DNA of 39,878 bases. Origin: Candidatus Omnitrophota bacterium. Lineage in GTDB: Bacteria > Omnitrophota > Gorgyraeia > Tantalellales > Tantalellaceae. The stretch lies in assembly GCA_030631915.1 (NCBI GenBank), contig DAOVKF010000001.1, forward strand, positions 1 through 39,878, read 5' to 3'. Position numbers and translations under genes: made by a program. Numbering within the stretch: the stretch's first letter is position 1; each line of letters opens with the position of its first letter. Under the pieces are notes generated by a model. It had not been told where the DNA came from. It was given only the letters and a program-made list of their open reading frames with translations, and made no database searches. This document shows positions 3,031 through 20,045 of the stretch, piece by piece.

Positions 3031-4386
3031 ATGGGGTTGTTGAAAAAGACATTAAAAATACTCCCCTTGCTGGCGGTCGGGACCTCGGCCGCGGCATGGG
3101 GGGATGAACCGACTGCCGCGAGTAACGCAGTGGCGATAGATACTGTGTGGACGCTGGTGGCGGCATTCCTTGTATTCTTTATGCAGCCCGGGTTCGCGAT
3201 GGTCGAGACCGGTTTTACAAGGGCGAAGAACGCGGCCAACATCCTGATGAAGAATCTTATGGATTTCTGTATAGGGTCGATCGCTTTCTGGCTGGTCGGG
3301 TTCGGCATAATGTTCGGAGCAAGCGCTCTGGGTCTTTTTGGAACGAACGGATTTTTCTTAAGCAGCGCGAATGCTTCTACGGGTGACGGATTGTGGCAGT
3401 TCGCTTACTGGATGTTCCAGGTGGTCTTCGCTGCCACAGCGGCGACGATCGTTTCCGGGGCAATGGCTGAAAGGACAAAGTTTCCCGCGTATCTGATCTA
3501 CTCGTTCTTTATCTGCGCTTTGATCTATCCCATAGTGGGCCACTGGATCTGGGGAGGCGGATGGCTTGCGGGTAAGGGCATGGTGGACTTTGCCGGTTCC
3601 ACGGTGGTCCACTCCGTCGGCGGATGGGCAGGCCTGGCAGGCGCGATAGTCCTCGGGCCGAGGCTGGGAAAATATAATAAGAACGGAAGCTCCAACGCTA
3701 TACCCGGGCATAATATACCTTTAGCCGCTTTAGGCGTGTTTATCCTCTGGTTTGGATGGTTTGGCTTTAACGCGGGCAGCACTACGTCCGGCACGAATCT
3801 GAGCATTGCCGTCATCGCGGTGACCACCAATCTGGCGGCGGCGGCGGCAGCCATTACTGCCATGTTCACGGCCTGGGCAAGGTTCGGGAAACCGGATACC
3901 AGCATGGCTTTGAACGGCGCTCTGGCCGGGCTTGTGGCTATAACCGCGCCCTGTGCGAGCGTTTCTCCTTTGAGCGCCGTTATCATCGGTGCCATAGCGG
4001 GGGTAATCGTCGTTCTCAGTGTCGAGCTTCTGGACAAAGTGTTTCATATTGACGATCCTGTGGGCGCGATATCGGTTCACGGGGTTTGCGGCGCGTTCGG
4101 AACGCTTTCCGTGGGCCTTTTTGCCGAAGCAGTGTATGGAGAGGCCAGCGGAATCGGGGCTGTCAACGGGCTCTTCTTTGGAGGCGGATTATCGCAGTTT
4201 TTCACACAGTTATTAGGCGTGGTGTCGGTATTCGCCTGGGTGTTCGGCACGGCCCTGCTCCTTTTTCACGTTATCAAAAAGACCGTGGGGCTCAGGGCTT
4301 CCGATGAAGAGCAGTTAAAAGGACTGGATATCGGTGAGCACGGCATGGAGGCGTATGCCGGATTCCAGATATTTACCACGCAGTAA
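3031..4386 (+). CDS. amtB: ammonium transporter (Amt family) with signal peptide
   Basis: Typical Amt motifs: [57 protein letters not shown]. Confidence 0.95.
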
Positions 4387-4457
4387 TACAGACGCGGATA
4401 TACGCGGATATACCGGTAACACCTGCGGGAATCTGCGTTTCAAAAAGGAGGGATACG

Positions 4458-4799
4458 ATGAAGCTTGTAATCGCGATGATTCAACCGCACAAGCTGCCGG
4501 ACGTGAAGAAAGCGCTTTATGACGCTGAAGTTTACAAGATGACAGTTACCAATGCCCTGGGCTGCGGACAGCAGAAAGGTTTTTCCGAAACCTATCGCGG
4601 GGTGGTCACGGAAGTGAATCTTCTAAAGAAGATAAGACTGGAGGTCGCGGTAAACGAGGATTTTGTCCAGCCGGCAATAGAGGCGATCATAAACGGCGCG
4701 AGGACAGGCAAGATTGGCGACGGAAAGATCTTTGTCCTGGACCTTCCGGAATGCGTAAGGATAAGAACCGGTGAAAAAGGATCCGCGGCGATCGGCTAA
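4458..4799 (+). CDS. glnK: P-II nitrogen regulatory protein, full-length T-loop
   Basis: 112 aa, RBS AAGGAGGGA. T-loop is [16 protein letters not shown] with a Tyr. C-terminal motif [11 protein letters not shown]...RIRTGE. Lies immediately downstream of amtB. Confidence 0.9.
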
Positions 4800-4888
4800 G
4801 AATAAGATAAAAGCCGGGGAGAGGAAAGGTGTCCTCTTGTCCAGAGAGCGGAGAGAGGACGCCTTTGTCATTCATGGGAGGAATGAAG

Positions 4889-5209
4889 ATGAAAAAGATC
4901 GAATGCATAATCCGTTCAGAGATGCTGAAAGGACTGAAAGAGGCCTTGAGACTGGCCGGTGTCGGGGGGATGACCATTACCGAAGTCAAAGGATTCGGAA
5001 GCGAGGCTACACGGCCGGATGCTTATCTGTTCCTGCCCAAGACCAAGGTTGAAATATATGCCGCTGATGAACAGGTGCAGGAGCTGGCCGCAGCGGTTAT
5101 TGATACCTGCCGCACGGGTGAATTAGGTGACGGCAAGATCATTGTTTCGCCGATGGATGAATGTATCCGGATAAGGACGGGCCAGAGAGGTGACGAGGCG
5201 ATATTTTAA
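4889..5209 (+). CDS. P-II family paralog with shortened, divergent T-loop
   Basis: MKKIECII... start is 6 nt after GGGAGGA, so the ORF-track start at 4829 is an upstream extension. [17 protein letters not shown] replaces the canonical [37 protein letters not shown] is retained. Confidence 0.8.
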   Translation: [106 protein letters not shown]

Positions 5210-5264: not shown

Positions 5265-6095
5265 ATGCGGATCAGGCATATGGTGGAAAGCGACCTGCCG
5301 GCTGTTTTGCGCATGGCGTCCGGGGAGGGATGGGTATCCGACATAACCGAGTTCCGGATCTTTATAGAGTTTAATCCATTTGGCTGTTTCATCTGTGCGA
5401 TGGACGGACGGATCCTCGGTTCCATTATGACGTTCTGCCATGCCGAAAGCGCCTGGGTAGGCAACTTTATTGTTTCTAAAGAGTATCGAGGGAGAGGCAT
5501 CGGCAGGAGACTTCTATCGCAGGCGATCGAATATCTGGACAAAAAGAAGAAACAGATCTATGTGAATGCTGCGGATGACGCAAGAAAATTGTACAAAAAA
5601 TTCGATTTCAAGGACGTTATATCGGTGGATCGATGGCAGGGTAAAGCGGTGAAACCCGCCGGGGATACGGAAAATCCCCGGGAAGCCATGTCCGACATTC
5701 TGAGCTTTATCGAGCTGGACGCGCGCATATGGGGGGATGAAAGGTTTGCCCTTATTTCGCGACTTTCATCATTGCGCCATTCTCGGTCATATTTCGGGCT
5801 TCCCGGATTTTTAATGTACGGTAATACGGGGGACAGTATCACTATCGGACCGTGGGAAGTAAAAGGCGGGGACGAAGAGATAGCGGAAAAACTGCTCATT
5901 TCCGGATTATCCGGACTAAGGCCTGGAAGTAAGATCCTTTTAGATGTTCCGGCAGTAAATGAAAAGGCGGCGAGGATCCTGGCCAGACATAAGTTCGAGA
6001 CCGTTGGGTCCACAATGTTTATGTGCCGCGGGAAATCGCCGCGGATCCATTTTAAAGAGATTTTCAGCCTTGCCACAATGGGTTCGATGGGGTAA
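5265..6095 (+). CDS. GNAT family N-acetyltransferase with C-terminal YitH-like extension
   Basis: Acetyl-CoA motif VSKEYRGRGIGRRLLSQAIEYL, and the length is typical of two-domain GNATs. Confidence 0.7.
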   Translation: MRIRHMVESDLPAVLRMASGEGWVSDITEFRIFIEFNPFGCFICAMDGRILGSIMTFCHAESAWVGNFIVSKEYRGRGIGRRLLSQAIEYLDKKKKQIYVNAADDARKLYKKFDFKDVISVDRWQGKAVKPAGDTENPREAMSDILSFIELDARIWGDERFALISRLSSLRHSRSYFGLPGFLMYGNTGDSITIGPWEVKGGDEEIAEKLLISGLSGLRPGSKILLDVPAVNEKAARILARHKFETVGSTMFMCRGKSPRIHFKEIFSLATMGSMG

Positions 6096-6379: not shown

Positions 6380-9300
6380 GTGCGCGAAATGAAGAACAAT
6401 GGTTTACCGGAAAAACAGGGCCTTTATGATCCGCGGTTCGAACACGACAGCTGCGGCGTGGGGTTTGTCTGCGATGTAAAGGGTAAAAAATCCAATGAAA
6501 TAATAAGGAAAGCTATAGAGGTCCTTGAAAACCTGAGCCACCGCGGCGCGGTCGGCGCTGATCCAAAGACGGGCGACGGCGCCGGGATACTGTTCCAGAT
6601 ACCGCATGAGTTCTATCTCCGCGTATGCGCTGATACAGGTATTGACCTGCCCCCTTCCGGCAGATATGGCACGGGACTCGTGTTCCTGCCGGCTGATGCC
6701 GGGGAACGCCGGTTCTGTGAAGATACTTTTGGGCGCGTGATCAGAGAAGAGGGACAGTTTTTGCTCGGGTGGCGCGCAGTGCCGGTAGACGATTCGATCA
6801 TAGGTAAAGGCGCAAGAGACACGCAGCCTGTGATAAAACAGATCTTCATCGCCCGGGACAAAGGGATCGACGAGCAGCTTGTTTTCGAACGTAAACTTTA
6901 TGTTATCAGGAAGAGGGTGGAGAATACGGTCCGTTCTTCGAGGATCCGACAGAAGAGTTTTTTCTATATCACCAGTGTTTCGTCAAGGACGGTCAGTTAC
7001 AAGGGGCTGTTAATGCCGGGCCAGGTGAAGCAATATTATCCTGATCTCCGGGACAAGGGGATAAAAAGCGCGCTCGCGATGGTACATTCGCGATACAGCA
7101 CCAATACGTTCCCAACCTGGGACCTGGCCCAGCCGTTCCGATTTCTCGCGCATAACGGGGAGATCAATACTTTAAGGGGGAATATTAACTGGTTCCGCGC
7201 GCGGGAAAGGCTGCTGGAAAGCAGGCTTTTCGGCGATGACATACGGAAGATCAAACCCGTTATCGTCGAAGGTGGCAGCGATTCCGCTATAATCGACAAT
7301 GTTTTCGAGCTTCTGGTCCTCTCGGGCAGATCACTTCCGCACGCGATGATGATGCTTATACCCGGCGCCTGGGAACACGACAGACTCCTGGACGAGGAGG
7401 TCCGGGATTTTTATAAATACCATGCCTGTTTCATGGAACCCTGGGACGGCCCCGCGGCCATAGCTTTCACTGATGGAAGGAGCATAGGGGCTGTGCTGGA
7501 CAGGAACGGCCTTCGTCCTGCGCGTTACATTGTAACCAAAAAGGGCTTTGTCGTAATGGCTTCTGAGGCCGGGGTGCTGAATATCGATCCGTCCGATATC
7601 AGGCTTTCCGGAAGACTGGAGCCGGGCAAAATGTTTTTGATCGATACCGGGACCGGCCGCATTGTCGATGACACCGAGATAAAAAAAGAAGTTTCCACCC
7701 GCCGCCCTTACGGCATGTGGAACAAAGAGAACATGGTTGAACTCGATGGTCTTCCTGACGCGGGGAAAGATTCCCCGGGAATACCGGATATTTTTACTTA
7801 TTTGAAAGCGTTCGGTTATTCCCGTGAGGACCTGAAAATGATCATCGGTCCCATGGCTGAACACGGGACAGAACCGACCGGGTCAATGGGCAATGACATG
7901 CCTCATGCTTTTCTGTCCAAAAAACCCCAGTTGCTTTATAATTATTTCAAGCAGCTGTTCGCGCAGGTCACAAACCCCGCTATTGACCCCATCAGGGAAG
8001 AGATGGTCATGAGTGTTGAAAGTTATGCCGGCGCTCAGAGAAATGTCCTGGATGAAACTCCCCGGCATTCCCGTAAGTTAAAGATAAAGAACCCGATCCT
8101 TTGTGATGAACAGCTTGAAAAGATCCGCGCTATCGATGAAAACGGGTTTAACACAAAGACCATTTCCCTGCTTTTCAGTGTCTCCGACAAGGAGGAGTTC
8201 ATTAAAACACTGGATAGAGTATGTGAAGACTCTGTTTCCGCGATACAGCAGGGATATACTTTTATAATCCTGAGCGACCGCGGCGTAAATGATAAACTCG
8301 CGGCCCTGCCCGTTCTTCTGGCCACAAGCGCGGTGCACCATCATCTTGTGAGGAACGGGATGCGGACGCAGATAGGCATAATGGTTGAAAGCGCGGAACC
8401 CCGAGAAGTACACCATTTCGCTCTTTTATTCGGCTATGGCGCGGACTGCGTGAATCCGTATCTTGCTTATAAAGCGGTCGAGTATCATGTAAAAGAGGGA
8501 CAGGTGCGGCTGGATACTGAAACAGCTCTGAAAAATTACAAAAAAGCCGTGGATAAAGGGATCTTGAAGATACTTTCGAAAATGGGTATATCGACTCTGC
8601 GGAGTTACAGGGGGGCCCAGATATTCGAGGCCCTTGGGCTGAACGAAGACGTTGTTAAAAGGTATTTTACCGGAACGGTATCCAGGATCGGCGGCGCGGG
8701 CCTGGACGTGATCGCAAAAGAGACGGTTTCCAGGCACAAAGAAGCGTATCCTGAGAACAAGAACCGGGAGAAACCCGGTCTGGCCACGGGCGGTATATAC
8801 CAGTGGAAACGGGACGGTGAGTTCCATTTGTGGCGGCCCGAAAGCATTGCCGCGCTCCAGGATTCTGTCAGAAAAGGGGATTACGAACGGTATAAAGAAT
8901 TCGCGCGGCTCATCAACGATCAAACGGGAAACCCCGCGACGTTACGGAGTTTACTTAAATTCAGGAAAACAGACCCCGTGCCGCTTGAAGAGGTCGAACC
9001 GGTCGAGGAGATCGTCAAACGGTTCGCCACCGGCGCCATGAGTTTCGGGTCCATAAGTAAAAGCGCGCATGAATCAATAGCTATCGCGATGAACCGGCTC
9101 GGGGCGAGGTCCAATACAGGTGAAGGCGGCGAGGATCCGGCGCGTTTTGCCGCGCTCCCGAACCATGACTCCGCGCGGAGCGCGGTAAAACAGGTCGCTT
9201 CGGGAAGGTTCGGCGTGACCACGAACTATCTTGTCAACGCCGATGAAATTCAGATAAAGATAGCCCAGGGCGCGAAACCGGGCGAAGGCGGCCAGCTTCC

Positions 9301-14898: not shown

Positions 14899-15612
14899 AT
14901 GAGTGAATATGTAACCCTTACAATTAACGGCGCTAAAGTAAGGGCGCCTCGAGGTACATCAGTATTGGACGCCGCGCTGGATTACGGGATATGCATACCG
15001 CACCTCTGTCACATGCAGGGGGTGATCCCCACGGGTGTCTGCCGTCTGTGTATCGTGGAGGTTATTGAAAAAGGCAGGTCAAAAGTTACTACCTCCTGCA
15101 CTCTTGAAGCGGAGGAAGGGATGGTAATTTTAGCTCATACGGACAAGATCCTTAAGGCGAGGAAGAATATCGCCGAGATGCTGGTAGCCGAAGCGCCTAA
15201 TTCACGCGCCATCCAGGACATTGCTCTCAAGTGCGGCGTTAAAGACGTCCGGTATCCTTTCCGCAATAAGGATTGCGTTTTATGCGGACGATGCGTCAGA
15301 GCCTGCACCGAGATATGGCGGTCCAGGTCCCTGGGTTTTGTGGGGCGCGGAGAACAGCGGCATGTCGCCCTTCCGTTCGACGAACGTCCGGAATTCTGTA
15401 AAAGATGCAATGCCTGTATCGATCTCTGTCCCATGACCATTACTCCGTGTGACGGGCCCATGAAAAAAGGCGAGGAATATTTTTGCGGGAAATGCGAGTC
15501 TCAACTGTCAATGTCGGAAGATTTTGTGGATAGTTGCGTGTGGTGCAGACTGGGAGAAGGGTTTGACGTGACAGGCAGACACGCCGGAAGAAAACAGGAG
15601 GATAAAAGATGA
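14899..15612 (+). CDS. NuoG/HydA N-terminal-like [2Fe-2S] + [4Fe-4S] ferredoxin (no catalytic domain)
   Basis: ITLTINGAKVRAPRGTSVLDAALDYGICIPHLCH, CRLCIVEV, CVLCGRCVRAC, CKRCNACIDLCP. Confidence 0.8.
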   Translation: MSEYVTLTINGAKVRAPRGTSVLDAALDYGICIPHLCHMQGVIPTGVCRLCIVEVIEKGRSKVTTSCTLEAEEGMVILAHTDKILKARKNIAEMLVAEAPNSRAIQDIALKCGVKDVRYPFRNKDCVLCGRCVRACTEIWRSRSLGFVGRGEQRHVALPFDERPEFCKRCNACIDLCPMTITPCDGPMKKGEEYFCGKCESQLSMSEDFVDSCVWCRLGEGFDVTGRHAGRKQEDKR

Positions 15613-17195
15613 ATTTGCAGCAGCCGAATGCTAACGACGTAACACAGACAGCGAACAGGTCCCGGAGCGTTGTTCCCGGGTCGGGATTATGCACGCGGTG
15701 TATTGACGGGTGCCGCGGGAATTGCGAAGTGTTTAAAGCGACCTTCAGGGGCCGCGAAGTGATCTATCCCGGCCCGTTCGGCGAGATCTCGGCCGGCGGA
15801 GACAAAGAATACCCGGTGGATTATTCACATCTTAACATACAGGGATACGCCATGGGCGCCAAAGGGCTTCCCGAAGGCGTGGAGGCCGGCCCGGACACCG
15901 CAACCTTTCCCGCTGTGAACACCGAAACCGGATACGGATGGGATAAAAAGGTAAAGATGAGGGTCCCGGCTTTTACAGGGGCGCTCGGCTCCACGGAAAT
16001 AGCCAGAAAGAACTGGGAGCATTTCGCGATCGGAGCGGCTATTTCCGGCGTTACTCTGGTCTGCGGAGAGAATGTTTGCGGCATTGACCCGGAATTGGAA
16101 CTGGACCCAAAGGGAAAGATCAAAAAAGCCCCTGACATGGACAGAAGGATAGAAACCTATAAGAAATTTCATGAGGGCTACGGAGAGATACTGGTCCAGA
16201 TGAACGTCGAAGACACCCGTTTGGGCGTCGCGGAATATGTAAGAAAGAAACACGACCTGGAGACCATTGAGCTTAAATGGGGACAGGGGGCCAAGTGTAT
16301 CGGAGGAGAGATCAAGGTCAAGAGCCTGGAAAGGGCGCTGGAACTTAAAAAAAGGGGATATATCGTTACTCCTGATCCGACGCTCAAGGCGGTCCAGAAC
16401 GCCTATAAAGCCGGAGCTATCAGGGAATTTGAACGCCATTCCCGCCTTGGATTCGTGACGGAAGAGGCTTTCTTCCAGGAGATCAAGCGTCTCAGGGATC
16501 TGGGGTTTAAGAGGATAACCCTGAAGACCGGCGCGTATCCGATGAGGGAACTTGCCATGGCCGTTAAATATTCGTCAATGGCCGGGATAGATCTTCTCAC
16601 GATAGACGGGGCTCCGGGCGGAACCGGGATGAGTCCGTGGAGGATGATGGAAGAGTGGGGGGTCCCGACGTTCTATCTCCAGTCCATGACTTATGAGATA
16701 TGTGAAAAACTAACGAAGAAAGGGATGCGGGTCCCGGACATCGCGATCGCGGGAGGGTTCTCCACCGAAGACCACATCTTCAAGGTGCTGGCCATGGGAG
16801 CGCCTTACGTGAAGGCGGTCTGCATGGGAAGGGCATATATGATCCCGGGCATGGTCGGCAAGAATATCGGATACTGGATCGATGGCAAGGACCTGCCTTC
16901 AACGGTTTCCCGATACGGCAAGACCCCGGAAGAGATATTTGTATGCTATGACGAGCTTGTCGAGAAATACGGAAACAGGATGAAAGAGATCCCCCTCGGC
17001 GCGATAGGGATCTACAGCTTTGCGCAGAAACTGAAAGTCGGGCTTCAGCAGCTCATGGCCGGGAGCAGGAATTTCAGGCTGGATACCATATCAAGGAAAG
17101 ACCTCATGTCCTTAACGGAAGAAGCCGCGAAAGTATCAGGCATTCCTTACGTGATGGACGCTTACAGGGAAGAGGCGGAAGCGGTACTTGGATAA
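15609..17195 (+). CDS. stand-alone glutamate synthase FMN-domain (GltS synthase-domain) protein with N-terminal Cys cluster
   Basis: ATGA overlap with the ferredoxin gene. CTRCIDGCRGNCEVF cluster. LTIDGAPGGTGMSP parallels ISGGDGGTGASP of gltB in this window. No Ntn glutaminase domain and no GXGXG domain. Confidence 0.85.
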   Translation: MNLQQPNANDVTQTANRSRSVVPGSGLCTRCIDGCRGNCEVFKATFRGREVIYPGPFGEISAGGDKEYPVDYSHLNIQGYAMGAKGLPEGVEAGPDTATFPAVNTETGYGWDKKVKMRVPAFTGALGSTEIARKNWEHFAIGAAISGVTLVCGENVCGIDPELELDPKGKIKKAPDMDRRIETYKKFHEGYGEILVQMNVEDTRLGVAEYVRKKHDLETIELKWGQGAKCIGGEIKVKSLERALELKKRGYIVTPDPTLKAVQNAYKAGAIREFERHSRLGFVTEEAFFQEIKRLRDLGFKRITLKTGAYPMRELAMAVKYSSMAGIDLLTIDGAPGGTGMSPWRMMEEWGVPTFYLQSMTYEICEKLTKKGMRVPDIAIAGGFSTEDHIFKVLAMGAPYVKAVCMGRAYMIPGMVGKNIGYWIDGKDLPSTVSRYGKTPEEIFVCYDELVEKYGNRMKEIPLGAIGIYSFAQKLKVGLQQLMAGSRNFRLDTISRKDLMSLTEEAAKVSGIPYVMDAYREEAEAVLG

Positions 17196-17216
17196 ACAGG
17201 GGAACACCCTGTTTTT
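17196..17216 (+). terminator. intrinsic terminator after the GltS-FMN gene
   Basis: ACAGGG-gaaca-CCCTGT followed by T5, directly after the TAA stop at 17193-17195. Confidence 0.6.
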
Positions 17217-17230
17217 AAGGGCATTGGCCC

Positions 17231-17269
17231 GTCCAGCAGTAGCGGCATGTCTTTTCTTCAGGCAGGCCG
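17231..17269. repeat. left copy of the 39-bp direct repeat (duplicate of the purF' 3' end)
   Basis: GTCCAGCAGTAGCGGCATGTCTTTTCTTCaGGCAGGCCG matches 18664-18702 at 38/39. On the minus strand it reads GLPEEKTCRYCWTG, then QCP-stop. Confidence 0.85.
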
Positions 17270-17337
17270 GTTCGTGAAGGCTTCGCGTGAACCTTACCTT
17301 ACAATGTAAATAGAGTCCCGCGGAGTCTGAGCACAAT

Positions 17338-17393
17338 AATTACAACATATAAGTTGTAATTTATTTGACAATACGACATATATGTTGTATAAT
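17338..17393 (+). promoter_or_regulatory. cassette promoter with two operator-like palindromes
   Basis: TTGACA (17365-17370), 17-nt spacer, TATAAT (17388-17393). Inverted repeat AATTACAAC-N6-GTTGTAATT at 17338-17361 and ATACGACAT-AT-ATGTTGTAT at 17371-17390. Confidence 0.6.
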
Positions 17394-17402
17394 TGTTCTA
17401 CA

Positions 17403-18122
17403 ATGAAAAAAGAGAAAATTTCAAGGTATCAGGACACGGTGCTCAGGGTTTTGGCGAACAAGATAGATGACTTCTATCTTGCCGGCGGCACCGCACTCTC
17501 TTTGTTTTATTTTCAACACAGATTATCTGTCGATCTGGATTTTTTTACTCCACATTTCTCATATAAGAGAATAGAAGAGATCGTTAGATATCTGGAAGGC
17601 GCTTTAGTGAAAGAAATTAAACTTATTGGACAAACGCTGGAAAAGGATAAGGCGAGGGTGCGGATCTATAATATATATTTCACGAAAAGAGATACCCTGA
17701 AAGTCGATTTTATCGAGGATCTTTTCAAACTCATTAAGCGGCCGAAAATAGTAGATGGCGTAAAAATATTATCTTTAGAGGATATATATCTGAGAAAACT
17801 GTATGCTATCGCCGGCATGATCCCTTTTCAGGACATAACAGGGAAAGAACGGTTTTTAGGCGGCAGGATAGAAGCAAAAGATTTTTATGATGTTTATTTC
17901 CTTTCGAGCACATTTATGTCTCTTTCGAGATTCGCGGAAAAATATACCGATAATACCGTAAAAGAAGGATTGATCAATTGGTTCCGCACTTATGACAGGA
18001 TGACCATGATGGACGATCTTTTAAGCTTGAATATAACTGAAAAAATAGACTATAAAAGCATGGATAAACATTTTAATGAAGAAATAGACAAGATCATCCA
18101 AAGGTATATAGAAAGAATATGA
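17403..18122 (+). CDS. nucleotidyltransferase, AbiEii/AbiGii (DUF1814)-type toxin family
   Basis: GGTALSLFYFQHRLSVDLDFF motif. The ATG at 17403 is about 10 nt after the -10 box, so the mRNA is probably leaderless. The ORF-track start at 17382 lies inside the promoter. Confidence 0.8.
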   Translation: MKKEKISRYQDTVLRVLANKIDDFYLAGGTALSLFYFQHRLSVDLDFFTPHFSYKRIEEIVRYLEGALVKEIKLIGQTLEKDKARVRIYNIYFTKRDTLKVDFIEDLFKLIKRPKIVDGVKILSLEDIYLRKLYAIAGMIPFQDITGKERFLGGRIEAKDFYDVYFLSSTFMSLSRFAEKYTDNTVKEGLINWFRTYDRMTMMDDLLSLNITEKIDYKSMDKHFNEEIDKIIQRYIERI

Positions 18123-18637
18123 AAAAAGACTGGTTATGGGACAGAAAAATAAGTCTTAGCGGGGCAAAAAAGATCCTCAGGGACTTTCAGGATAAAAAGT
18201 TCATTTTACTTGCCTCATTACTTTTGACACGAAAAAATGACCCCGAAGAGGTTTTCAGGGAATATATTGATCCGATCATGTTCTGCAAGAGCTGGCCTAA
18301 AATTAAGAAGAACATGCGTAAAAACAAATGGAGCGATAAACGGATCATTTTCTGGCAGGCCGTGTATGAGAAGCTCATGGAAAAATACCGCGGGGAAGGG
18401 ATCAGATTTAGGGAGAAGAAAGAGATAGCAATAGAGGAGATAAGCAGAAAGACAGGTGATCAAATACGAAGGATCAGAAGAGAGCAGGGGTTGTCCCAGA
18501 AGGAATTAGCGAAAAAAATGGGGGTTTCTCAACAGCAGATTTCCCGCATTGAAAAAGGCAAAGAGAATGTATCCCTGACAACGCTCACCGGTATTATGAA
18601 AGCCTTGAATAAAACAGTGAATATTACTTTTGGGTAG
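18119..18637 (+). CDS. XRE-family HTH protein (putative cognate antitoxin/regulator) with uncharacterised N-terminal domain
   Basis: ATGA overlap with the NTase gene. C-terminal HTH: IRRIRREQGLSQKELAKKMGVSQQQISRIEKGKENVSLTTL. Confidence 0.8.
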   Translation: MKKDWLWDRKISLSGAKKILRDFQDKKFILLASLLLTRKNDPEEVFREYIDPIMFCKSWPKIKKNMRKNKWSDKRIIFWQAVYEKLMEKYRGEGIRFREKKEIAIEEISRKTGDQIRRIRREQGLSQKELAKKMGVSQQQISRIEKGKENVSLTTLTGIMKALNKTVNITFG

Positions 18638-18647
18638 AAGCCGGGCA

Positions 18648-20045
18648 CTACGGGCTTTTGCCTGTCCAGCAGTAGCGGCATGTCTTTTCTTCGGGCAGGC
18701 CGATGGCTTCGACCATATCGTCAATGGTCTGATACCGCAAGGTGGTTACGTCAAGGTCCCGGGCGATCCATTCCACCATTTTACGGTATTTGCCGGAATC
18801 ATGGTCACAGTATTCCGACACGTCCTCTATGTCGTGCCCTTCCAGGCTTCGGATGGCTTTCCGGGCGGCCAGTTCATGGATGCTCCGCGTGGACAGACAG
18901 AATTTGCAGGGGAACATGAGCGGCGGGCACGCGGGCCTGACGTGAACCTCTTTGGCCCCGCATTCCCACAGTTTGGTCACCGTGAAATTCTTTAACTGCG
19001 TCCCTCTTACTATGGAATCCTCGCATACGACGATCCTGTTGCCCTCAATTATGTCCTTTATGGGGATGAGTTTCATGGTCGCGATCAGGTCGCGCGTTCC
19101 CTGCGACGGCGGCGTATAGCTCCGGCCGTATCCGGGCGTGTATTTTACCAGCGGCCTCCTCAAGGGTTTTCCGGACTCCATGGCATATCCCAGCGCGTGC
19201 GCGACCCCGGAATCGGGTATCCCGGCAACCAGGTCCACCTCGATGTCTTTATCTTTCCGCGCCAGGGACCTGCCGCATTTCTCGCGCACGGTCTCCACGT
19301 TGATGCCTTCATAACTCGAGGCGGGGAACCCGGTATATATCCAGAGAAAAGCGCAGATCTGGTTGTTTTTACCTCCCGGTCTTTTCTGCGCCATGCCCCG
19401 CTCGTTGAGCATGACTATTTCTCCGGGTTCCAGGTACTTTACCGTCTCGAACCCGTTATTCGGAAAAGCGCTGGTCTCGGAAGTGACTGCCCAGGCGTCT
19501 TCCCGTTTGCCTACGATAAGAGGCGTATATCCCAGGCGGTCCCTGGCGGCGTACACCCCGTCTTTATTCAGCAGCAGAAGGGAGCAGGAACCGTCGATCG
19601 CCTGGAACATTTTTTCTATGCCGTCTATGAGGCTGGTCCCCTGATTGATAAGTTTTGCCATCAGTTCCGTCACATTGACCGTCGCTGCGCTCATCTCGCT
19701 GAAAGAGATCCCCTTATCAAGAAGCGCTTCAGCCAGTTTTTCGGAGTTTTCTATGAGCCCGCTGGTGACGATACAGAACGGGCCGAACCTTGAATTAAGG
19801 AAGATCGGCTGTTCGTTACTGTCGCTGATAACCCCGATACCCTTGTTACCCGTCATCCGTCTGCAATCTTCATGGAATTTGGACTTGAACTGACTCTGGC
19901 TGATCTCATGGATCTGGCGCTGAAACACCTCTCCAAGGACCGCTATGCCCCCGTATTCCGTCCCCAGATGGGAGTGGTAATCCGTGCCGTATAACAGAAT
20001 GTCCGTACAATTTTCCCTGGAAACCACACCAAATATCCCGCTCAT
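18648..20045 (-). CDS. amidophosphoribosyltransferase (PurF) paralog with degenerate glutaminase site (Ser replaces the N-terminal Cys)
   Basis: RBS AAGAGGAGA, then a 6-nt spacer, then ATG AGC GGG (MSGIFG). The PRTase motifs are retained ([27 protein letters not shown]), as are the Fe-S Cys positions. The glutaminase motifs are lost. Confidence 0.85.
   Translation of the reverse strand: MSGIFGVVSRENCTDILLYGTDYHSHLGTEYGGIAVLGEVFQRQIHEISQSQFKSKFHEDCRRMTGNKGIGVISDSNEQPIFLNSRFGPFCIVTSGLIENSEKLAEALLDKGISFSEMSAATVNVTELMAKLINQGTSLIDGIEKMFQAIDGSCSLLLLNKDGVYAARDRLGYTPLIVGKREDAWAVTSETSAFPNNGFETVKYLEPGEIVMLNERGMAQKRPGGKNNQICAFLWIYTGFPASSYEGINVETVREKCGRSLARKDKDIEVDLVAGIPDSGVAHALGYAMESGKPLRRPLVKYTPGYGRSYTPPSQGTRDLIATMKLIPIKDIIEGNRIVVCEDSIVRGTQLKNFTVTKLWECGAKEVHVRPACPPLMFPCKFCLSTRSIHELAARKAIRSLEGHDIEDVSEYCDHDSGKYRKMVEWIARDLDVTTLRYQTIDDMVEAIGLPEEKTCRYCWTGKSP
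18664..18702. repeat. right copy of the 39-bp direct repeat (inside the purF' 3' end)
   Basis: 38/39 identical to 17231-17269. Encodes GLPEEKTCRYCWTG of the intact gene. Confidence 0.85.

Follow-up and report, generated by a model that had tools for sequence, protein, structure and literature searches.

Here, we describe a compact two-gene module in a 39.9-kb cold-seep metagenome scaffold of a Candidatus Omnitrophota bacterium (contig DAOVKF010000001.1; the whole stretch of 39,878 nucleotides that was analyzed is referred to as the window). This module, or cassette, spans ~1.3 kb, has its own promoter, and encodes a nucleotidyltransferase (NTase) of the AbiEii/DUF1814 type and, downstream of it, a partner protein with an XRE-type helix-turn-helix (HTH) domain. 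We demonstrate that the cassette is a foreign, strain-variable insertion exactly at the stop codon of a purF-like gene, between purF and the terminator that purF formerly shared with a convergent gltS-like gene. We suggest that it is a horizontally acquired toxin-antitoxin or defense-type module that was placed by homology-anchored or Campbell-like recombination, a reading to which we assign a probability of roughly 0.6.

The cassette is an insertion at the 3' end of purF

The cassette is flanked by direct repeats of 54 nt (17216-17269 and 18649-18702), which form one direct-repeat family with a spacing of 1433 and are identical at 49/54 positions (91%). A first-pass annotation of this DNA had reported nearly identical repeats of 39 nt; this core (17231-17269 and 18664-18702) is indeed identical at 38/39 positions, with the sole difference at 17260/18693, and a 29-mer taken from it occurs exactly twice in the window compared to zero expected occurrences (100 shuffles). 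Both copies encode the last 17 codons and the stop codon of purF. Translated from the minus strand, they give GLPEEKTCRYCWTG followed by QCP-TAA in the left copy and by KSP-TAG in the right copy; these translations agree with the earlier description of the right copy as the true C terminus of PurF and of the left copy as the same residues with a different ending. In run X1, the source of the scaffold, which was assembled independently by Logan, a single 3570-nt unitig (16350-19919) covers both repeats with zero mismatches, and, therefore, the arrangement is not an assembly artifact. The cassette has a GC content of 0.38 vs. 0.53 in the host, with values of 0.32 to 0.45 between the repeats vs. 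0.51 to 0.63 in the flanks; this drop and the promoter described below bear out the predicted low-GC interval with its own consensus promoter. Neither an integrase, as had been noted before, nor a transposase is encoded in the window, and no terminal inverted repeats were found at the cassette, in which the only inverted repeats are the operators.

The prediction that a genuine insertion should have an empty counterpart with one repeat copy holds true. In the marine-sediment run X2, a 151-nt contig (depth 6.1) is colinear with 17195-17269 joined to 18703-18778, i.e., with a cassette-free joint. This contig aligns to the left junction with its positions 1-75 and to the right junction with positions 25-151, and the 24 letters before the equivalent of 18652 are the gltS hairpin, which is found, with substitutions, directly beside the single repeat copy. 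This copy ends …CWTGECP-TAA. In X2 and in X3, which seems to be the same data, the cassette has a depth of zero over 17337-18505, and the gltS and purF contigs there are 95 to 99% identical to the window. In the hydrothermal-vent run X4, a gltS-hairpin contig ending at 17259 forks into purF (depth 3.5) and into the left edge of the cassette (~88% identical, depth 2.4), and pieces of the cassette open reading frames are present at 96 to 98% identity; the two forms, empty and occupied, seem to coexist in X4. Assembled genomes gave no usable synteny-based empty site, with purF lying in other genomic contexts in all five of the closest PurF relatives (83 to 88% identical), and Logan contigs were used instead.

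Compared to the X2 empty allele, the left copy has 2/54 differences and the right copy 4/54; over the last three codons and the stop codon, these numbers are one and four, respectively. Because the gltS-side copy is closer to the empty allele, we regard it as the stranded original. It retains the Cys-Pro that is typical of the family, the empty-site allele has ECP, the commonest PurF ending (59/117 relatives), and the hairpin beside it is the bidirectional terminator of the ancestral convergent gltS/purF pair; the earlier suggestion that the left copy marks the ancestral gene end is thus supported. In X4, the copies carry the A/G variant of 17260/18693 the other way round than in the window, and the KSP tail lies next to the hairpin. 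Together with the 9% divergence of the two copies, these features fit exchange between alleles and between copies, and we infer that recombination within the identical core of 29 to 39 nt can by now remove the cassette or swap sequence between the copies. As for the PurF end in use, its tail after CWTG has three residues and is the shortest among 117 relatives (median 21), and it lacks the Cys that is present at that position in 86/117 relatives. The KSP ending is found only in the two records of this strain and, at the DNA level, in X4.

The left copy does not end with the repeat. The 24 to 30 nt after 17269 are purF-body sequence, and a less decayed version of this relic in X4 (AGTTCATGGATGCTTCGC…) matches purF 18871-18888 at 17/18 positions, 14 of them consecutive. 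The X4 relic has a chain score of 38.4, which is reached by 0/2000 shuffles, and an ungapped score of 32 compared to a genome-wide background maximum of 22; for the version in the window, p is ~0.005 to 0.009. On the minus strand, the purF pieces follow each other in the order ~18952-18942, 18889-18869, and 18702-18648, and they are joined at the microhomologies GT(T/C)CACG and (C/T)(T/C)GGCC. Because the relic holds noncontiguous pieces of purF, we conclude that ~300 nt of purF were duplicated and that the useless copy later lost ~215 nt by deletion. Thus, the purF-side copy keeps the gene intact, and the gltS-side copy has been eroded through microhomology deletions. The cassette sequence proper begins near 17300.

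Features of the purF-cassette-gltS region (coordinates are those of the window)
Feature	Position	Strand	Remarks
GltS-FMN-like gene (Glu_synthase domain)	15609..17195	+	Pfam PF01645; upstream neighbor of the cassette, originally convergent with purF
Hairpin, 8 bp and T-run	17194..17216	both	DNA fold of 17190-17275, z = -4.5; immediately follows the GltS-FMN-like gene
Left copy, displaced original purF 3' end	17215..17269	-	17 codons GLPEEKTCRYCWTGQCP and TAA; gene-less
Relic continuation	17270..17299	-	purF-body fragments ~18870-18893 and ~18941-18952
Left end of cassette proper	17300..17340	+	motif ATGTAA-N4-AGTCCCGC (17304-17321) and small hairpin
Regulatory region	17341..17393	+	palindromes TACAACATATAAGTTGTA (17341-17358) and TACGACATATATGTTGTA (17372-17389) around the promoter
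AbiEii/DUF1814-family NTase, putative toxin/effector	17403..18122	+	239 aa
Partner protein, putative antitoxin/autorepressor	18119..18637	+	172 aa; five-helix N-domain and C-terminal XRE HTH
Right copy, purF 3' end in use	18648..18702	-	…CRYCWTGKSP and TAG; 10 nt beyond the stop codon of the partner gene
purF-like amidophosphoribosyltransferase, target gene	18648..20045	-	465 aa; TIGR01134 205 bits, below the equivalog cut-off

A two-gene family with a conserved promoter layout

The two genes are what the first-pass annotation had taken them for, an AbiEii-type NTase and an XRE-HTH protein. The NTase matches the Pfam AbiEii model PF08843 with 69.8 bits (cut-off 22.5) over residues 18-227 and 17 AbiEii models of PADLOC (best 8e-11); the NCBIfam library has no model for it. 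Members of the DUF1814/AbiEii family share the motifs hG[G/S]-x(~15)-DhD with an Arg in motif II, KLxA… in motif III, and +DxxD in motif IV, and mutating any of the four motifs abolishes toxicity of AbiEii (PMC3985639). In the NTase described here, motifs I and II read A27-G28-G29, 14 rather than 15 residues, and D44-L-D46, with R40 inside; motif III is K132-L-Y-A135 and motif IV K159-D160-F-Y-D163, and all four are invariant across 26 homologs. Also invariant is Ser42 in the loop R40-x-S42-x-D44-x-D46, which matches the phospho-acceptor S78 of MenT3/TglT (PMC11375011, PMC7205606). Judged by its sequence, the NTase is a member of the DUF1814/AbiEii family with a predicted intact active site.

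The partner gene starts within the NTase gene, with a 4-bp overlap of start and stop codon (ATGA). The partner matches Pfam HTH_3 with 64 bits, and its HTH, at residues ~107-165, has C.BclI, HipB, and HigA as closest solved relatives. Residues 1-98 are confidently predicted to form a five-helix domain (pLDDT 85.7, pTM 0.74). This N-domain has no family match in Pfam, NCBIfam, or PADLOC and, searched alone, no match among PDB folds (best E-value 8), and a search with the whole protein returns the HTH only. No AbiEi family match was found for the partner, for which all hits in Pfam, NCBIfam, and PADLOC are XRE-type HTH families at residues ~107-167. Because its N-domain matches neither a known family nor a PDB fold, we conclude that the partner is not AbiEi. 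Thus, of the earlier notion of a reversed AbiEi-AbiEii pair, the NTase-first order stands, and the partner is an unrelated protein. Against the MqsA_antitoxin model, its score of 22.8 bits falls short of the cut-off (30) and comes from the HTH part only. It has a single invariant Cys, C56.

The N-domain family comprises 114 clusters at 50% identity among 1.84 billion proteins. The N-domain and HTH together also form the N-terminal head of proteins of 450 to 1300 aa; in a Pfam check of 10 of these long proteins, five (P0385, P0390, P0394, P0396, and P0399; 600 to 1200 aa) have an Mrr_cat nuclease domain along with TPR repeats and/or PIN (TPR-GreAB-C). Judging from these architectures, the head seems to serve as a portable regulatory unit that is combined with various effectors. 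A regulator head fused to varied effectors is a pattern typical of modular conflict systems.

The promoter (TTGACA-17-TATAAT, 17365-17393) matches the sigma-70 consensus at 12/12 positions. Two 18-nt palindromes of the form TACAAC-N6-GTTGTA accompany it, the first placed ahead of the -35 box and the other in the spacer that separates the -35 from the -10 box. This layout is kept in relatives, and a near-consensus promoter is present in 46/52 loci. From their placement, the two palindromes are probably operators suited to autorepression by the partner. The -10 box ends 9 nt before the NTase ATG in the window and 12 nt before it in the loci L008, L025, and L088, and no Shine-Dalgarno sequence is present; hence, the NTase mRNA is leaderless or nearly so. 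Run X6, from a second cold-seep sample, has a Logan contig of 56 nt that covers 17354-17392 with five mismatches at a depth of 199, and the rest of the cassette is scarce there; the promoter/operator sequence is thus very abundant in that community, presumably derived from many related cassettes. Locus L097 has an extra operator-like palindrome (TACAACAAATATGTCGTA, 5406-5423) 182 nt downstream of the cassette, and in L012 (~7250-7330) and L031 (~7210-7290) a near-identical promoter-like sequence, GATTGAAAA.AAAGCAAAAAAACGTATAATAAAATTATATA, comes straight after the cassette. These downstream elements may belong to neighboring or tandem modules. DNA homology to other cassettes spans ~17332 to ~18578. 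In 1.28 Mb of loci, ATGTAA-N4-AGTCCCGC is confined to the window and L025, where it has the same relative place, and an end motif common to all cassettes was rejected, with only the promoter and operators being general.

Homologs of the NTase form at least 590 clusters and those of the partner at least 250, and the clusters with a source name are from Omnitrophota. More than 560 loci in species-representative genomes and more than 560 in JGI metagenomes encode relatives. Among ~50 closer, mostly Omnitrophota loci with both genes on the contig, a full-length partner gene follows the NTase gene in all, the 4-bp overlap recurs often, and the GC content of the cassette is below that of the flanks in most. 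Carriage by phages was considered and dropped, as 2.9 million viral contigs hold no relative of the NTase. The cassette of the window itself was not found in other contexts, and near-identical words occur only in runs X1, X4/X5, and X6. Cassettes are co-oriented with the upstream neighbor in 32/35 loci and with the downstream neighbor in 28/32 (L008-L036 and L088-L112), so that the convergence with purF in the window is an exception. This bias may reflect the insertion mechanism, selection against head-on transcription, or a general gene-strand bias. NCBI names the genes separately ("AbiEii/AbiGii toxin family protein" and "helix-turn-helix transcriptional regulator"), and no description of a pair of AbiEii and a downstream XRE protein was found in the literature.

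As to its setting, the cassette is embedded centrally in an otherwise housekeeping gene cluster, an unusually complete "glutamine amidotransferase supercluster": between 39 and 38879, nearly every gene of the window encodes a glutamine or ammonium enzyme or regulator. The order is glnA, GAF-ANTAR, amtB, GNAT, gltB, gltD, NuoE/F-like, Fer2, GltS-FMN-like, and purF-like, followed by carB, carA, a second carB, a second class-II glutamine amidotransferase, pyrG, guaA, purS-purL, purQ, tRNA-Glu, and glmS. Homologs of the purF-like gene are annotated by the thousand as amidophosphoribosyltransferase, and among named organisms, the closest PurF relatives belong to Omnitrophota, Ca. Makaraimicrobium being one of them. 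The record L002 (GCA_023135115.1) was rejected as an independent genome because it represents the same strain. Its contig JAGLTU010000080 is identical to the window over 16081-19904 except for 2 nt; from there on (19905-20045 and beyond), the first 140 nt of purF differ at 42 positions, and carB is replaced by a Peptidase_S9 gene. This divergence at the start of purF is either a recombination breakpoint or a sign of a chimeric contig.

Possible routes of insertion and possible functions

When the flanks of 40 loci were compared, repeats of at least 40 bits were found in 5/40, compared to 0/40 in the inverted-strand and 0/40 in the other-locus controls. Three of these loci, i.e., the window, L025, and L088, have one geometry with unrelated repeat sequences: the repeats measure 54 nt (91% identity), 41 nt (88%), and 55 nt (87%), respectively; the left repeat ends 134, 136, and 128 nt before the ATG; and the right repeat starts 12, 1, and 9 nt after the stop codon. 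L021 and L034 are flanked by REP-like dispersed repeats, and short flanking repeats of L008, L012, L031, and L032 were rejected as target duplications because they were judged dispersed or promoter-derived. The left copy of L088 (2158-2270) aligns colinearly with at least 330 nt of the intergenic region downstream of the cassette (3583-3915), of which it lacks ~180 nt and ~35 nt; in run X11, the left copy retains 21 of the missing letters, showing that one deletion is polymorphic. The window and L088 agree in that the partner gene is followed by the working copy, with erosion affecting the copy on the promoter side. No recombinase is encoded by the genes immediately flanking the L025 and L088 cassettes, and neither the cassette nor the L025 junctions have Rfam matches. 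An empty site was not found for L088, which is occupied in 4/4 salt-lake runs tested, and for L025 only the ambiguous joints 5864->7357 and 5864->5927 were found.

L025 differs in further respects. A 34-nt stretch of its repeat (ACCAGAATTGAACACATCGGGGTGGAGACGCCAC; 5831-5864 and 7246-7279), which has no Rfam match, occurs in several contexts in the groundwater runs X32, X33, and X35. In two of these, it abuts related cassettes without the 60-nt leader (joints 5864->5927 and 5871->5932), and a more abundant strain has it joined to 7357. L025 also encodes a Bro-N domain protein (4190-5032), two genes ahead of the cassette. Bro-N domains are typical of phage or mobile DNA, which hints that the L025 cassette sits in an accessory region.

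We suggest that the cassette entered by recombination anchored in purF homology on one side, which would have been completed by an illegitimate joint at the left end of the cassette, i.e., by homology-facilitated illegitimate recombination. Equally, a circle carrying a purF fragment might have been inserted by a Campbell-type single crossover. In neither case would cutting and joining by a site-specific integrase be involved. Because the gene downstream of purF is different in four of the five closest relatives examined (in the fifth, it is off the contig), incoming DNA would often share homology on the purF side only, which makes the one-sided route plausible. Once in place, the consensus promoter would drive a near-leaderless bicistronic mRNA from which the partner is translationally coupled to the NTase. 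The NTase would act as a MenT/AbiEii-like enzyme; characterized relatives bind GTP or add nucleotides to tRNA acceptor ends and arrest growth (PMC3985639, PMC7450476, PMC10435456). A dimer of the partner would bind both TACAAC-N6-GTTGTA palindromes through its HTH and repress its own operon, and the N-domain might neutralize the NTase by binding it or by provoking phosphorylation of Ser42, as in MenA/MenT and TakA/TglT. Loss of partner supply, through phage-induced shut-off or loss of the DNA, would then free the NTase and result in abortive infection or addiction.

Several points weigh against this proposal. Integrase att sites in gene 3' ends also typically have identity blocks that resemble such imperfect repeats of 41 to 55 nt, and in groundwater the L025 repeat borders related cassettes that have other outer flanks, so that repeats could travel with the cassette like att sites. 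About 34/39 family loci have no detectable flanking repeat; such a repeat may mark young insertions only or one of several routes. No donor genome was found with the cassette beside purF in another context, and the route was deduced from the scars at three loci. The empty site and the X4 forms are seen in short Logan contigs of low depth (2-6x) rather than in raw reads. Finally, the functional part of the proposal draws on family membership and operon logic.

The main alternative route was proposed in the first-pass annotation, which saw the signature of site-specific integration. The repeats would then be attL and attR at the 3' end of purF, and the cassette either the decayed remnant of a larger island that kept its att sites and lost its integrase or a mini-element mobilized in trans by an integrase from elsewhere. 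Cis-mobilizable elements (CIMEs), i.e., integrase-less remnants of integrative and conjugative or integrative and mobilizable elements (ICEs/IMEs) with attL and attR in a gene 3' end, are an established concept (PMC5704250), and direct repeats that rebuild a gene 3' end, the presence/absence polymorphism, the imperfect repeats of similar length at three loci, and the several outer contexts of the L025 repeat would all be expected of them. However, the left copy in the window runs on beyond the repeat as noncontiguous segments of the purF body, with ~300 nt duplicated, and the match in L088 extends over at least 330 nt. The repeats of different loci have no core in common, conserved ends and terminal inverted repeats are lacking, and there is no integrase in the 39.9 kb or immediately flanking the L025 and L088 cassettes (whole genomes were not covered). 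Moreover, the right repeat follows the partner stop codon by 1 to 12 nt in three loci, which leaves no room for arm sites and would call for implausibly precise deletions, and no larger relative of such an element is present among ~570 family loci or viral contigs. We therefore do not uphold the att signature and consider this alternative rather unlikely. A cassette that mobilizes itself, with the NTase and/or the partner, the palindromes, and the ATGTAA…AGTCCCGC end driving insertion and generating long, variable target duplications, would explain why a like repeat geometry is found at three unrelated sites, why the right boundary is discrete at a stop codon, and why hundreds of copies across Omnitrophota always form one compact unit with its own promoter and, in most loci, a GC content below that of the flanks. 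Yet neither protein contains a domain of the nuclease, recombinase, or Rep-like kind, no two sites were found to hold near-identical copies, repeats are absent at most loci, and the left boundary varies between loci; we give this idea hardly any credence. The polarity of the event could also be the reverse, with the occupied form being ancestral, the empty sites arising by recombination between the repeats, and the repeats uninformative on insertion. While an identical core of 29 to 39 nt suffices for RecA-dependent deletion and the swapped 17260/18693 variant in X4 indicates exchange between the repeats, the ECP allele of X2 is not a recombinant of QCP and KSP and agrees with the consensus of 59/117 relatives, the GC content of the cassette is 15 points under that of the host, and no relative beyond ~97% identity has a cassette at purF. 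A reverse polarity is, thus, very unlikely.

A different objection concerns function, namely that the pair is an ordinary regulated nucleotidyltransferase, for instance one that modifies small molecules or RNA, with its own transcription factor. The lack of an NCBIfam model for the NTase and of a known antitoxin fold in the partner N-domain would be in keeping with this. Against it stand the invariance of the four toxicity-linked AbiEii motifs and of the phospho-acceptor Ser (PMC3985639, PMC11375011), the 4-bp operon coupling and the promoter of autoregulatory type, the patchy, strain-variable, and low-GC distribution, and the fusion of the partner module to nuclease and PIN effectors elsewhere. 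Hence, we regard an ordinary enzyme as unlikely. At the other extreme, the cassette would be an integrase-free mobile unit that carries the flank next to its 3' end along on a circle or linear DNA, re-enters via host recombination, and leaves a scar with a functional downstream and a decaying upstream copy. With a portable regulator or sensor head that also drives Mrr-nuclease, TPR, and PIN effectors, it would represent a new, Omnitrophota-centered family of conflict systems that disperses in a way of its own. We consider this extended version of our proposal highly speculative and doubtful.

Relation to known systems

As we read it, the value of the insertion is in what it teaches and not in any break with known biology. 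Natural populations rarely show one toxin-antitoxin insertion in its occupied form, its empty form, and as a decaying scar, as they do here, and the case cautions that direct repeats rebuilding a gene 3' end are in themselves no proof of an integrase att site. If homology-anchored recombination was the route, small selfish modules may colonize genomes without a mobility gene. Homology-facilitated illegitimate recombination and Campbell-type insertion-duplication are known from laboratory transformation and conjugation (PMC3240628; for merodiploid formation, PMC3784515). The scar described here is like their products in having one homologous flank, an illegitimate joint at the other, a partial duplication of the anchor gene, microhomologies, and no dedicated recombinase; by contrast, no description was found of such events as the recurrent scar of one natural cassette family. 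With CIMEs, the cassette shares direct repeats that rebuild the 3' end of a protein gene, the lack of its own recombinase, and strain variability. However, it has a duplication of ~300 nt where a CIME has a short att core, it lacks a known parental ICE/IME and a known cognate integrase, and its family has analogous scars at unrelated sites with unrelated repeat sequences. Unlike transposons and insertion sequences, it has neither a transposase nor terminal inverted repeats, and the duplications are long and variable rather than short and fixed. Unlike integron gene cassettes, its repeat is purF coding sequence and not attC, it has its own promoter, and the window contains no intI or array.

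In its gene content, the cassette resembles AbiE (Dy et al. 2014, PMC3985639) by having a DUF1814/AbiEii NTase of the Pol-beta type with motifs I-IV, a bicistronic operon with overlapping genes, inverted repeats in the promoter that would suit autorepression, and a location on mobile or variable DNA. By contrast, AbiEi has a winged HTH N-domain of COG5340 and a C-terminal domain, and its gene lies upstream, while the partner described here has a novel N-domain and a C-terminal XRE HTH and is encoded downstream of the NTase. Also, the NTase is short (239 aa) and has weak scores against the PADLOC AbiEii models. Because an AbiEi partner and the AbiE gene order are lacking, the cassette is not an AbiE system. 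With MenAT and TglT-TakA of Mycobacterium tuberculosis (PMC7450476, PMC7205606, PMC11375011), it shares the DUF1814 NTase superfamily and the R-x-S-x-D-x-D loop, and, because the Ser equivalent to S78 is invariant, antitoxin-induced phosphorylation is a plausible means of neutralization. However, the antitoxins MenA1 and MenA3/TakA are unrelated to the partner and encoded upstream, and modification of the tRNA acceptor stem is an activity of the characterized systems. The third likeness is to reverse-order type II systems such as MqsRA, HigBA, and HipBA, in which the toxin gene comes first, the antitoxin has a C-terminal XRE HTH and an N-terminal neutralizing domain (the MqsA layout), and palindromic operators overlap the promoter; moreover, the partner HTH is nearest to HipB, HigA, and C-proteins. 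The toxin candidate differs, being an NTase rather than an RNase or kinase, and the partner lacks the zinc-binding CxxC pairs of MqsA and scores below the family cut-offs. Because the toxin class differs (a Pol-beta-type NTase vs. an RNase of the RelE/MqsR fold), the cassette is not an MqsRA or HigBA system. A compact DUF1814/AbiEii module with an antitoxin candidate other than AbiEi, which is abundant in the uncultivated phylum Omnitrophota, would widen the known ways in which NTase toxins are controlled. Altogether, by analogy with these systems, the module would work like a hybrid, in which an AbiEii/MenT-type toxin is placed under a downstream XRE antitoxin in the style of MqsA and HigA.

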